Shown here one piece after another: positions 55,201-64,000 of a stretch of 64,000 bases of DNA. The position numbers were made by a program. Source of the DNA: Escherichia coli (lineage in GTDB: Bacteria; Pseudomonadota; Gammaproteobacteria; Enterobacterales; Enterobacteriaceae). Each line of letters starts with the position of its first letter. The stretch's first letter is position 1. The stretch lies in assembly GCF_041886205.1 (NCBI RefSeq), contig NZ_CP169029.1; one strand, written 5' to 3'.

Positions 55201-58200
55201 ATATTGCCGTAAAACTCCGGCGAGGTGTCCAGGTTGTGGTTGTAGTAATCCAGCCCGGCGTTCGCGAGGCGCTGCGCCTGAGATTCACTCAACGTGCCCA
55301 GCGTCATACACGCCTCCAGCCCCATCGCTTTTACCCCCTGCACCATTTGTTCCAGGTACGGCATATCGCGTTCGTGGGGATTCTTCCACGCCGCGCCCAT
55401 ACAGAAGCGCGTCGATCCTGCCGCTTTCGCTTTGCGCGCCGACTCCAGCACCTGTTCAACTTCCATCAACCGCTCGGCTTCCAGCCCGGTTTTGTAGCGC
55501 GAGCTTTGCGGGCAGTATTTGCAATCTTCCGGACAAGCTCCGGTCTTAATCGACAGCAACGTGCTGACCTGCACCTGACGAGGATCGAAATGCTGGCGAT
55601 GCACCTGCTGCGCTTCAAACAGCAGATCCAGCAACGGTTTTTCAAATAATTCTGTGACTTGCGACAATGTCCAGCGTGGGCGGTGAGCCATGGGGCTTCT
55701 CCAAAACGTGTTTTTTGTTGTTAATTCGGTGTAGACTTGTAAACCTAAATCTTTTCAATTTGGTTTACAAGTCGATTATGACAACGGACGATCTTGCCTT
55801 TGACCAACGCCATATCTGGCACCCATACACATCCATGACCTCCCCTCTGCCGGTTTATCCGGTGGTGAGCGCCGAAGGTTGCGAGCTGATTTTGTCTGAC
55901 GGCAGACGCCTGGTTGACGGTATGTCGTCCTGGTGGGCGGCGATCCACGGCTACAATCACCCGCAGCTTAATGCGGCGATGAAGTCGCAAATTGATGCCA
56001 TGTCGCATGTGATGTTTGGCGGTATCACCCATGCGCCAGCCATTGAGCTGTGCCGCAAACTGGTGGCGATGACGCCGCAACCGCTGGAGTGCGTTTTTCT
56101 CGCGGACTCCGGTTCCGTAGCGGTGGAAGTGGCGATGAAAATGGCGTTGCAGTACTGGCAAGCCAAAGGCGAAGCGCGCCAGCGTTTTCTGACCTTCCGC
56201 AATGGTTATCATGGCGATACCTTTGGCGCGATGTCGGTGTGCGATCCGGATAACTCAATGCACAGTCTGTGGAAAGGCTACCTGCCAGAAAACCTGTTTG
56301 CTCCCGCCCCGCAAAGCCGCATGGATGGCGAATGGGATGAGCGCGATATGGTGGGCTTTGCCCGCCTGATGGCGGCGCATCGTCATGAAATCGCGGCGGT
56401 GATCATTGAGCCGATTGTCCAGGGCGCAGGCGGGATGCGCATGTACCATCCGGAATGGTTAAAACGAATCCGCAAAATGTGCGATCGCGAAGGTATCTTG
56501 CTGATTGCCGACGAGATCGCCACCGGATTTGGTCGTACCGGCAAACTGTTTGCCTGTGAATATGCAGAAATCGCGCCGGACATTTTGTGCCTCGGTAAAG
56601 CCTTAACCGGCGGCACAATGACCCTTTCCGCCACACTTACCACGCGCGAGGTTGCAGAAACCATCAGTAACGGCGAAGCCGGCTGCTTTATGCATGGGCC
56701 AACTTTTATGGGCAATCCGCTGGCCTGCGCGGCAGCAAACGCCAGCCTGGCGATTATCGAATCCGGCGAATGGCAGCAGCAGGTGGCGGCTATTGAAGTG
56801 CAGCTGCGCGAGCAACTGGCACCAGCCCGTGATGCCGAAATGGTTGCCGATGTGCGCGTACTGGGGGCAATCGGTGTGGTCGAAACCACTCGTCCGGTGA
56901 ATATGGCGGCGCTGCAAAAATTCTTTGTCGAACAGGGTGTCTGGATCCGGCCTTTTGGCAAACTGATTTACCTGATGCCGCCCTATATTATTCTCCCGCA
57001 ACAGTTGCAGCGTCTGACCGCAGCGGTTAACCGCGCGGTACAGGATGAAACATTTTTTTGCCAATAACGGGAAGTCCGCGTGAGGGTTTCTGGCTACACT
57101 TTCTGCAAACAAGAAAGGAGGGTTCATGAAACTCATCAGTAACGATCTGCGCGATGGCGATAAATTGCCGCATCGTCATGTCTTTAACGGCATGGGTTAC
57201 GATGGCGATAATATTTCACCGCATCTGGCGTGGGATGATGTTCCTGCGGGAACGAAAAGTTTTGTTGTCACCTGCTACGACCCGGATGCGCCAACCGGCT
57301 CCGGCTGGTGGCACTGGGTAGTTGTTAACTTACCCGCTGATACCCGCGTATTACCGCAAGGGTTTGGCTCTGGTCTGGTAGCAATGCCAGACGGCGTTTT
57401 GCAGACGCGTACCGACTTTGGTAAAACCGGGTACGATGGCGCAGCACCGCCGAAAGGCGAAACTCATCGCTACATTTTTACCGTTCACGCGCTGGATATA
57501 GAACGTATTGATGTCGATGAAGGTGCCAGCGGCGCGATGGTCGGGTTTAACGTTCATTTCCACTCTCTGGCAAGCGCCTCGATTACTGCGATGTTTAGTT
57601 AATCACTCTGCCAGATGGCGCAATGCCATCTGGTATCACTTAAAGGTATTAAAAACAACTTTTTGTCTTTTTACCTTCCCGTTTCGCTCAAGTTAGTATA
57701 AAAAAGCTGAACGCGAAACATTAAAAACCATTAATATCAATGTGTTACAATATCTTTAGTCTAAAAAATAGACTACATGATGCTACAAAACACAACATAT
57801 CCAGTCACTATGAATCAACTACTTAGATAGTATTAGTGACCTGAGACAGAGCATTAGCGCAAGGTGATTTTTGTCTTCTTGCGCTAATTTTTTGTTATCA
57901 AACATGTCGCACTCCAGAGAAGCACAAAGCCTTGCAATCCAGTGCAAAGATTTGTGTGCCTCAGTTTTGTCTAAGTGTTCTACTGAAAACATAGTAAAAT
58001 CGGCAACAGCTGGAAATCATTCAATACTCGCACTATCGAAAGTTCACCAGCCAACCGCAGCACGTTCTTGCATACGACGTGCTGCGGTTTTCTTTATGAT
58101 TTATGCACAATGGACAATTTGAAATTATTGATGATTGTATGGTGCATCGTTTTCTGAACCTACACTGATTTTTTGGTATAGCCTTGCCTAGCCAGTCTTA

Positions 58201-61200: not shown

Positions 61201-64000
61201 GCTTTTTTGGTCACAATCACCGTACAGTCGGTGATATTGCCTGCCCCCTGATTGCCTTTCTGGAAAATCTTAAACTCCAGAGTGACGCTTCCCCTGCCAC
61301 TCGGCATATCAATAACTGCACTGTAACTACCGGGAATGGCCCCTTTAGTTTCTCTGGATGCGATTAATACGCCGTTTTTGCGAACTTCAAAACCATAACC
61401 CGTGTATCGCGTGCCTCCTGGGTTATTTCCGCTCCCCGGATCGTCATACGCTATACCGTTAAAAATAATGGGCGGAATAATAATCTGGCGGTCAAAGTTA
61501 TGATCATCGCTGATGGTGACTGTAACCGTACCGTTTGGTGTTTCCGTGTTACCCCACGTACCGACTTTTTTCGGGAAGGCTTTTGATACAGCTTTAACGA
61601 AATCTCCTCTGACCTGGGTCGCCTCCAGCATGCCCTTAATCGTACAGTTCTGGTTAATCGTGACATTGTTGAGCGTTCCTGAGTTCGCATTCACACTGCC
61701 ACTGATATCCGCATTTTTCGCCGTCAGTCTCCCGTCTGATGTCAGGGAAAATGCCGGAGGATTACCGCCGCTGGTAATGGTGGGGGCCGTCAGGCGTTTC
61801 AGGAACACTTCATTCATGAATATCTGATCGCCCTGACCAACAAACATCGGCTTTGTGTTGCCATTCGCAGGATTAATCATCGCAATCCTGTCTGCTGCCA
61901 GCAGCACCTGACTCTGCATGCCGTCAGGGGTGTTCTCAATACCGGCACCGATACCCGCAATATAAAGGCGTCCGTCCTGCATCTGCTGCAGCTTCACTGC
62001 CCACATGCTGTTCAGGTTATTATTTGTATCAACCTGAACCTTCTGTATCTGCTGGATCGCTGCACTCTGGTCTTCCAGTTTCTTATTGACGGTCTGTGTT
62101 ATTTCATTGCTGACATCCGTTATGGACATCCTGATTTCAGTCAGGTCAGGCGCAAGCTGACCGTTATCAATCTGCGTCCACAGCTCCTGAGCCAGATGGG
62201 TTTTCCCTATCTCGCCTTTGAAAAAATCCAGATAGCCTGATGCATCATCACTCGGCTGACCGACAGCCTCCACGAATGCCGATTTGCCAACGGTGTTCAC
62301 ACTGCGAACGTAAAAATAATAATCATGGCCCGGTTTGATATTGATACTGGCGGCTATCCAGTACAGTGCCGTACCAAGATAACGCGCGCTGGTTTCAACC
62401 TGCCTGATATCCGCAATCCGTTTTTCCGAGAACCAGAACTCAAACTGTACCGTCGGGTCATAAACCGCAAGATGCGGCGTGGCGGTTATCTGAAAATAGC
62501 CCGGCGTCAGCTCAATCCGCGACGGCGCTGCCGGTGCGGCAATCCGGAACGATACCGACGCCGGATCGCCCTGCTGCCCCCACGCATTTACTGCCCGGAC
62601 TGTCAGCCTGTAGTTCCCCAGAGCCAGTTGTGTGAAGCGGTAAGTGGTTTCCGTCGTCCGGGCCGTGCTGACCAGCCGCTCACGGCCGTCATCCGCTGCC
62701 ACGGTCAGGCGAAGCAGGAAGCTCACGCCCTTCACCACCTTCGGCGTGTCCCAGCGCGCCAGCACCTGGTATTCCCCGCTGTCTGCGGTGACTTCTGCGG
62801 TCAGGTGCTGCACCGCTGGCGGCGTGACACCATTTACCGTGCCGCTCTGGTCGCCGTCAAAGTGCGCCCCGTTATCCACGATGGCCTCTTTTTCCGGTAC
62901 ATGCTGCACGGCGGTGATGGCATACGTGCCGTCATCGTTCTCACGGATACTCACGCAGCGGAACAGGCGCTGGCGCAGCGTCGGCAGCTTCAGCCCCCAC
63001 ACGCTGTATTCTGCAACGCCGTCAGGAACACGGCTCACTTTCACCTTCACGCCGTCGGTGACGGACTGGACCTCCACGCTGACCGGATTACCCTGACCGT
63101 CAACCAGGCTTATCAGCGTGGTACCGGAGGATGGCAGCGTGATTTCACGGTCGAGCGTCAGCGTCCGGGTCTGGCTGTTCACCGCCAGCACGCGCCCGCC
63201 GGTGCTGATGCCCGCATAGTCATCATCGCAGATTTCAATGACATCCCCCGGTACATGGCGAAGCCCTTCCGCACCCACGCTGAAGTCCACGGTCTGCGTT
63301 TCCAGCAGTTCCGTTTTAATCAGCCACAGCCCGGCGCGGTGCACCTGCCCCCGGCTGGTACAGCCAAAGGCATCCATCTTCGTGACGTTACGACCGTATC
63401 CGTTGTCTGTGTACGGGGAGTTCTGGCTTTCGGTGCCAGCATCTGCGCCACACCACCGAGCACCATACTGGCACCGAGAGAAAACAGGATGCCGGTCATA
63501 CCACCGGTCCCAATGGCTGCCCCCCATGCTGCAAGGGTGGCTCCGGCGGTAAAGAATGATCCGGCAATGGCGGCAGCCCCCAGGACAATCTGGAATACGC
63601 CACCTGACTTGGCCCCGGCGACTCTGGGAACAATATGAATCACAGCGCCATCAGGCAGAGTCTCATGTAACTGCGCCGTTAACCCGGACGTGCTGACGTC
63701 CCGCCCGGCAATCCGTACCTGATACCAGCCGTCGCTCAGTTTCTGACGAAACGCCGGGAGCTGTGTGGCCCGTGCCCGGATGGCTTCAGCCCCCGTTTTC
63801 ACACGAAGGTCGATGCGGCGACCAAATCGTTGTAAATCCCCGTAAAGGCAGATGCGCGCCATGCCCGGTGACGCCAGAGGGAGTGTGTGCGTCGCTGCCA
63901 TTTGTCGGTGTACCTCTCTCGTTTGCTCAGTTGTTCAGGAATATGGTGCAGCAGCTCGCCGTCGCCGCAGTAAATTGCGGCGTGATTCGGCACTGATGAA

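Follow-up and report, generated by a model that had tools for sequence, protein, structure and literature searches.

We analyzed positions 57681 to 64000 of a 64,000-nucleotide stretch of Escherichia coli DNA (contig NZ_CP169029.1; the whole stretch is hereafter called the window). With a probability that we put at about 0.93, this interval represents the attR and right arm of a cryptic prophage of lambda type, inserted at the ybhC-ybhB site and decayed by deletions, which carries the diguanylate cyclase gene dgcX as a lysogenic-conversion (moron) gene in the variable, non-essential slot of the phage b region. The best database match to the window was the complete genome of E. coli wlxctx60 (obtained in Japan from the faeces of an Asian black bear), with 4 substitutions in 28,001 overlapping bases (at 37218, 40190, 46501 and 63953); the window thus derives from a close relation of this strain and not from that very record. 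The element was followed past the window edge in this genome, where it measures 18.6 kb from attL to attR.

According to the history that we propose, Int-mediated recombination of attP with attB would have integrated a lambda-type phage between ybhC and ybhB, and, as comparison with fuller relatives shows, at least six illegitimate deletions, at the level of microhomology, then cut the original ~50 kb to ~18.6 kb. The genes left intact by this decay are int, xis, a DLP12-type Q-porin-lysis block, a Rac-type trkG block, the tail fibre assembly gene tfa and dgcX. If DgcX is expressed as it is elsewhere, it would add synthesis of cyclic di-GMP (c-di-GMP) and push the cell toward matrix production.

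The attR junction and its flanks

The 15-bp lambda common core, GCTTTTTTATACTAA, occurs in the window as one exact copy on the minus strand (Table 1), and no match to it was obtained in 100 dinucleotide-preserving shuffles, with up to one mismatch allowed. We aligned four sequences around it: the window junction, lambda attP, the attL of wlxctx60 and the empty attB of strain K-12. On the ybhB side, the flank of the core matched, base for base, the B' half of the ybhC-ybhB site as it stands unoccupied in K-12, and on the other side we observed a gap-free match to the lambda P arm. The window junction thus consists of P, core and B', and the attL of wlxctx60, which adjoins ybhC, consists of B (the K-12 arm), core and P' (the lambda arm); between them, the two junctions restore attB and attP. 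The standard map of integrated lambda is gal-attL-int...J-attR-bio; the order P-core-B' therefore identifies the junction in the window as attR (POB'). Judged from the alignment, this layout is what Int-mediated Campbell recombination of attP with attB would yield. The preliminary description of this DNA had placed the core at the same position and had read the junction as attR, with a bacterial arm toward ybhB and a phage P arm on the other side; both statements were borne out.

Compared with lambda 27742-27471, the P arm was 88.6% identical over 272 bp, and compared with the attP arm of phage ev099 it was 96.7% identical. Because of this closer identity to ev099, the P arm is a variant that is also found in deposited phage genomes, and not a decayed site. 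Using arm-site coordinates taken from the annotation of the lambda record and mapped through the alignment, we observed that the Int arm-site cores CAGGTCACTAATAC and ATAGTGACTG of lambda 'int 1' and 'int 2' are unchanged in the window. The Xis/Fis/IHF H2 segment of the arm showed several substitutions in comparison with lambda.

Past the P arm lies the sib/tI hairpin, which folds with -26.3 kcal/mol (z = -6.35) and is followed by UUUUUU. In lambda, sib/tI is the retroregulation terminator of int, and in the present prophage it has been parted from int by integration. A remnant of the b region follows, with 89% identity to lambda 24265-24162, and its hairpin at 58053-58089 also folds strongly (-24 kcal/mol, z = -5.9). 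Both hairpins were found by folding and had been missed by a terminator scanner, their apical regions being probably larger than its 3-8 nt loop limit. On the host side, the DNA from ~36000 to 57600 carries ybhF, the moa genes, uvrB, the bio operon and ybhB in the order of K-12.

The dgcX cargo gene

Homology to lambda and to phages ev099 and Chlobot ends at 57903-58087 and returns at tfa, at 59754-59803. The slot between sib and tfa is occupied by ea47/ea31/ea59 in lambda, by an AraC-type regulator in ev099 and by a glycosyltransferase in Chlobot; in the window, it is occupied by a 1.67-kb cassette carrying dgcX. The product contains a MASE4 domain at residues 40-274 (1.3e-35) and a GGDEF domain at residues 283-437 (5e-44). 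Its motif stretch KSIRKEDILGRLGGEEFGII has a GGEEF A-site at residue 357 and, five residues upstream, the RKED of an RxxD I-site, in agreement with the GGEEF and RxxD motifs described for DgcX (Richter et al., 2014; PMC4287979). In comparison with the DgcX of the German outbreak genome O104:H4, encoded at the same ybhB-tfa position, 437 of the 443 residues were identical (98.6%) and the open reading frame (ORF) was full length, without truncation.

The 2014 description presents DgcX as a diguanylate cyclase with very high expression, encoded at the attB locus of enteroaggregative (EAEC) and enterotoxigenic (ETEC) E. coli (PMC4287979), and in a study from 2023 it was reported to influence the red, dry and rough (rdar) morphotype of biofilms, the production of cellulose and motility (Cimdins-Ahne et al., 2023; PMC10459773). 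By analogy with these orthologues, the DgcX of the present prophage is predicted to be a membrane-bound cyclase with a MASE4 sensor, which would make c-di-GMP and promote a biofilm matrix of curli and cellulose.

Downstream, dgcX converges on tfa. The near-perfect palindrome between the two genes folds on both strands (-15.8 kcal/mol on the plus strand and -26.3 kcal/mol on the minus strand, z of about -5.1 for both), and it is likely a bidirectional terminator shared by dgcX and tfa. At the DNA level, tfa was 94.7% identical to lambda orf-194, and the Tfa protein has an accession in common with the fuller prophages XJ5.2 and 6EVA. As a separate observation, the Rfam family IS009 (RF02111, a candidate E. 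coli small RNA) matched 59796-59994 on the minus strand with 225 bits, wholly within the 3' half of tfa; what this 'sRNA' family models may be no more than the conserved tfa sequence of prophages.

dgcX has been described as 'directly adjacent' to lambdoid prophages or their remnants, and it was proposed in 2014 that the gene is host DNA beside the prophage, which hitchhiked by specialized transduction after aberrant excision (PMC4287979). The G+C content of dgcX (29.9%), foreign to phage and host alike, would agree with such an origin, as would its presence at other chromosomal sites in some strains (PMC4287979; PMC10459773). Moreover, dgcX is in no deposited phage genome that we searched, as DgcX matched only distant GGDEF domains by tblastn in 50,697 phage records, all with less than 60% identity and none covering 80% or more, and an ancient capture by aberrant excision at an earlier site is conceivable. 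However, the attR core, the whole P arm and sib all lie between dgcX and ybhB; the gene is therefore inside the att-bounded phage genome. It occupies the same slot as the cargo of lambda, ev099 and Chlobot, between the conserved sib and tfa. In addition, dgcX was found in 766 of 5,426 complete E. coli genomes, and a tail fibre assembly gene was listed under the match in 37 of the 39 substantial matches sampled from these carriers. We therefore consider an origin by specialized transduction unlikely. Because it lies in the cargo slot between sib/tI and tfa, inside the phage genome, dgcX behaves as a moron, and an internal moron would be a better fit to this arrangement than host DNA gained by transduction.

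Deletions in the tail region and in the rest of the element

We mapped the deletions against lambda and against the prophages of XJ5.2, O104:H4 and 6EVA. The full-length genes of XJ5.2 measure 3,498 nt for J, 3,399 nt for stf and 600 nt for lom, and the same genes are also full length in O104:H4 and 6EVA. Two deletion junctions are located in the window, and the alignment of both showed no insertion sequence (IS) element. At deletion 1, which fuses lom' to stf', 3,297 bp were missing in comparison with XJ5.2 and 3,294 bp in comparison with 6EVA; what is left of stf covers only the final ~155 positions of the phrog_295 profile. At deletion 2, which fuses I' to J', the missing DNA amounted to 1,504 bp (XJ5.2) or 1,502 bp (6EVA). 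As a result, the N-terminal 425 of the 1165 J codons are gone, the matches to phrog_2148 and phrog_31 start inside these profiles, and I' loses its C-terminal part, its frame shifting into J sequence in the ORF list. We also observed that deletion 2 makes a 783-aa ORF (61176-63527, minus strand), with ~43 out-of-frame I codons from an ATG followed by J residues 426-1165; nothing points to expression of this I/J fusion.

Among the 5,426 complete E. coli genomes, wlxctx60 was the only one in which junction 1, junction 2 and junction 3 (just past the window edge) were each present as one contiguous sequence. From this survey, junctions 1 to 3 are recent events, private to the present lineage. In other E. 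coli genomes, mostly chicken isolates, lambdoid prophages showed different and independent I-J joins, in which a 200-bp query was split in two over 527-745 bp, and it may be that prophage decay recurs at the I-J region.

The complete element was then read from attL to attR in wlxctx60. The order is int, xis, ea8.5, O', P', ren, emrE, ybcK', ybcN, ninE, ybcO, rusA, ylcG, quuD, an intact nmpC-type porin gene, essD, rrrD, rzpD, trkG, ynaK', a chimeric ORF, I', J', lom', stf', tfa and dgcX. Int (356 aa) has 4 substitutions and Xis (72 aa) has 2 compared to lambda, neither has a premature stop, and the segment from int to ea22 is 99.25% identical to lambda. Deletion 6, equivalent to lambda 29985-39118, removes exo, bet, gam, kil, cIII, N, rex, cI, cro, cII and all four ori iterons, and the O remnant begins at lambda-equivalent 39119, directly past iteron 4. 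The wlxctx60 annotation contains no repressor, cro, N or recombination genes between ea8.5 and O'.

For deletions 3 to 5, 6EVA replaced XJ5.2 and O104:H4 as the undeleted reference, as the heads of those two are lambda-type and they are without the trkG block. The 6EVA prophage, of ~50 kb, is inserted at the same site, and its DgcX, Tfa, TrkG, RrrD, RzpD and porin proteins are identical to those of the present element. At deletion 3, the last ~93 codons of K are fused to a glycosyltransferase-like ORF: residues 1-167 of the chimeric product match phrog_842 and residues 166-258 match the minor tail protein family phrog_30. In wlxctx60, this ORF (window-equivalent 63799-64575) is annotated as 'GREB1-related protein', a misleading name for a phrog_842::K chimera.

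Some further observations were made on the near-parental 6EVA prophage (NZ_CP138428.1, ~1375000-1424900, at attB-lambda). In it, a tail tip of lambda type (K-I-J-lom-stf-tfa) is joined to a non-lambda head module, whose capsid protein is P22-type and whose portal is of the DUF4055 family. In K-12, the Rac genes ynaK-ydaY-ynaA look like a decayed copy of its late module, and trkG is located between Rz and a ParB-like gene in both the 6EVA prophage and K-12 Rac.

Because it is without the repressor/operator/N region, the N-terminal part of O with the iterons, terminase, head, tail tube and a functional tail tip, the element is predicted to make neither heads nor tails, to be unable to replicate and not to be inducible. 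Since int and xis are left without the pL- and cII-dependent routes of expression, excision should be rare unless Int and Xis are supplied in trans. These results are in line with the preliminary description, which had proposed a degraded lambdoid prophage at the lambda site, with a tail region so heavily deleted that tail production would fail, and with tfa and the cargo gene spared. The multiple deletions, mapped on lambda and its relatives, would indeed rule out tail assembly, and both Tfa, at 194 aa and with its shared accession, and DgcX, at 443 aa, are intact. The alignment to lambda that had been suggested as a check placed the deletion endpoints, with the fuller relatives added as references. 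Past position 64000, wlxctx60 showed attL beside ybhC and int, xis and other phage genes between the two att sites, the head and immunity genes being gone, and the ORFs of the tail region are truncated lambda-type genes and not intact genes of another family.

The tail-fibre and J genes are repeated among lambdoid prophages, at a median of 2-4 places per genome, and such repeats can mislead assemblers; the deletions could thus be artefacts of collapsed or mis-joined contigs. We consider this very improbable, as the three junctions are also found in wlxctx60, so that two non-identical sequences carry them, and the 2-5 bp of microhomology, with no long flanking repeats, fits illegitimate recombination and not repeat collapse. 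A phage satellite or integrative island using the lambda att site would share with the element its small size, the retention of int and xis, the loss of capsid genes and the accessory cargo. However, the gene order of the element follows that of full lambdoid prophages inserted at this site, each of its gaps maps to a simple deletion relative to 6EVA, many of the remnants are truncated pseudogenes, the part of O with the origin iterons (on the lambda map) is gone, and the wlxctx60 annotation has no primase/replicase of its own and no capsid-redirecting or helper-sensing genes; on the collinearity with 6EVA and the pseudogene content, this explanation was rejected as scarcely credible. That the ORFs are intact full-length genes of another phage family, in a complete prophage, is hardly tenable either: the non-lambda head module of 6EVA does mean that a lambda-only comparison overstates the deletion, but the same genes are full length in XJ5.2, O104:H4 and 6EVA at the same site, the junctions are abrupt with out-of-frame fusions, the PHROG matches start or stop inside their profiles and wlxctx60 is annotated with pseudogenes, and this candidate was rejected on these abrupt out-of-frame truncations relative to full-length relatives.

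Several points weigh against our interpretation of the element and of its cargo. Everything past position 64000 (attL, int and xis, the absence of head and immunity genes, and deletion 3) was read from wlxctx60 and not from the window. 6EVA and XJ5.2 are mosaic relatives (97-99.8% identity by segment) and not proven ancestors, which makes the deletion sizes estimates, and the size of deletion 6 is inexact, as the xis-exo interval is not the same in 6EVA and in the window lineage. Between the dgcX genes of the window and O104:H4 there are 6 nonsynonymous and 3 synonymous differences, too few for an informative ratio of nonsynonymous to synonymous rates (dN/dS). The sigma-70-like matches in the dgcX region (12, compared to 12.8 in shuffles) were not above chance, and the promoter at 58247-58275 is a candidate only. 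Cyclase activity and high expression are predictions for the present allele, drawn from the published orthologues. Finally, a transfer of dgcX by viable phage, which we infer, has against it the absence of the gene from the deposited phage genomes.

The frames of the accessory genes dgcX, trkG and emrE, of the porin gene and of the Q-lysis cassette are intact, as is that of tfa. A tentative interpretation, which we find rather doubtful, is that the decay was non-random: six independent deletions would have hit structural, immunity and replication genes and kept the accessory genes and the tfa frame, as in a domestication in progress with the c-di-GMP module of dgcX fixed under selection. Its equally tentative corollary would be that dgcX spreads as an internal b-region moron and not by specialized transduction.

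Table 1. Features of the attR junction, cargo gene and tail region in window coordinates, with the deletions of the element (sizes are estimates)
Feature	Position	Strand or placement	Basis
ybhB, host gene on the bio side	57126..57602	+	ORF list; annotated so in wlxctx60, XJ5.2, O104:H4 and K-12
B' arm, host half of attB	57640..57692	.	Identical to K-12 ybhC-ybhB intergenic sequence
Lambda common core of attR, 15 bp	57693..57707	-	Single exact match; aligned with the cores of attP, attB and attL
Lambda-type P arm	57708..57850	-	Gap-free alignment to lambda 27723-27581
Int arm site P2 ('int 2')	57797-57816	within P arm	Lambda annotation
Int arm site P1 ('int 1')	57829-57848	within P arm	Lambda annotation
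sib / tI hairpin and T-run	57853..57894	+	Aligns to lambda b-side sequence beside attP; folding
b-region remnant with strong terminator-like hairpin (58053-58089) and U-rich tail	57986..58095	+	Lambda match, folding
dgcX cassette, variable slot between sib and tfa	58088..59753	+	Flanking homology breakpoints, G+C
Candidate promoter TTGACA-17-TAGTAT	58247-58275	upstream of dgcX	Promoter-like match, 10/12
dgcX, 443-aa MASE4-GGDEF diguanylate cyclase	58348..59679	+	Pfam, motifs, O104:H4 orthologue
Near-perfect palindrome between convergent dgcX and tfa	59707..59743	.	Folds on both strands
tfa, tail fibre assembly, intact, 194 aa	59753..60337	-	phrog_105, 6e-100
stf', last 185 codons of the side tail fibre gene	60337..60895	-	Collinear with XJ5.2 stf to the junction
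Deletion 1 junction, GCATA microhomology (5 bp); 3.3 kb lost: stf except its last 185 codons, lom except its first ~71	60891..60895	.	Three-way junction alignment and mapping
lom', ~71 N-terminal codons of the Lom outer-membrane protein gene	60896..61105	-	XJ5.2 lom mapping; pseudogene in wlxctx60
J', C-terminal 740 codons of the tail-tip host-specificity gene	61176..63398	-	XJ5.2 J and lambda J 16780-18474
Deletion 2 junction, TA microhomology (2 bp); 1.5 kb lost: first 425 of 1165 J codons and C-terminal I, leaving out-of-frame fusions	63397..63398	.	Three-way junction alignment and mapping
I', N-terminal part of tail assembly gene I	63399..63901	-	99% identity to lambda 15282-14773; annotated pseudogene
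K', C-terminal part of tail gene K	63799..64000, continues past the window edge	-	Lambda and 6EVA mapping
Deletion 3; 16.1 kb lost: terminase, portal, capsid, tail tube, tape measure, M, L, N-terminal K	equivalent of 64077	77 bp past the window	
Deletion 4; 2.65 kb lost: ybcK and neighbours		outside the window	
Deletion 5; ~0.31 kb (~314 bp) lost: part of P		outside the window	
Deletion 6; 6-9 kb lost, depending on the reference: ea22 to the middle of O		outside the window	

Other loci of the window and comparison with known systems

Some features of the window lie apart from the prophage. In the rhlE-dinG interval (~27978-31839), the wlxctx60 annotation lists a hypothetical protein of 514 aa together with a type III secretion effector of EspX2 type, and this interval looks like a small accessory island. 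Between ybhN and moaE (~42815-45151), three Bax-inhibitor-1/YccA-family paralogues, ybhL and two others, lie in tandem, one of them being split by IS1 in XJ5.2. We also observed three expected chromosomal RNA elements: a molybdenum cofactor (Moco) riboswitch upstream of moaA (47979-48123, minus strand) and, on the plus strand, naRNA4 (23107-23177) and ES036 (49388-49429).

Cryptic lambdoid prophages at attB-lambda and their association with dgcX are documented (PMC4287979; PMC10459773), and some copies of the dgcX prophage are remnants, such as that of E24377A at 29.9 kb (PMC4287979). The present analysis makes modest additions. The location of dgcX inside an att-bounded genome favours ordinary lysogenic conversion over specialized transduction; the frequency given above shows that the gene is common; and, with the near-parental 6EVA, the lineage would offer a clean, datable case of stepwise decay by microhomology deletions with the cargo spared. 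Overall, the finding matters little beyond correct annotation, this being an ordinary cryptic prophage with a published cargo at a published location.

In comparison with integrated lambda at the gal-bio site, the element has the identical core, host arms of K-12 type, a gap-free P arm with P1 and P2, the sib/tI hairpin, the lambda P' arm in the attL of wlxctx60 and nearly identical int and xis. In contrast to lambda, its P arm is closer to that of ev099, dgcX stands in place of the b region (ea47-ea59), J is divergent at its C-terminal end (76% identity or no DNA match), and most of the lambda genome is absent or represented by non-lambda modules. The dgcX prophages of EAEC O104:H4/55989 and ETEC E24377A/H10407 (Richter et al., 2014; Cimdins-Ahne et al., 2023) are at the same site and have the same order, ybhB-dgcX-tfa-stf-lom-J-I-K; in O104:H4, the DLP12-type block from ybcN to the lysis genes is 96.4% identical to that of the present element. 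The present copy differs from them by its further decay to 18.6 kb, by its private junctions and by a Rac-type trkG-ynaK block, with a parent whose head would be non-lambda as in 6EVA, whereas the head genes of O104:H4 and XJ5.2 are lambda-type.

Like K-12 Rac and DLP12, the element is a grounded lambdoid remnant that retains accessory genes. Its rzpR'-trkG-ynaK block is 99.3% identical to Rac, and its block ren-emrE ... ybcN-ninE-ybcO-rusA-ylcG-quuD-porin-essD-rrrD-rzpD is 92-98% identical to DLP12. It differs from both by its location at the lambda attB, with lambda-type int and xis, instead of ttcA or argU, by the absence of IS elements in the porin and ren genes and by the presence of dgcX. 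Finally, the dgcX cassette resembles phage morons such as lom and bor in being self-contained and atypical in G+C content, with a candidate promoter and flanking terminator-like hairpins, in a variable and non-essential slot. It differs from these morons in that its cargo is a c-di-GMP cyclase and not a surface protein, and in that its own transcription is predicted.

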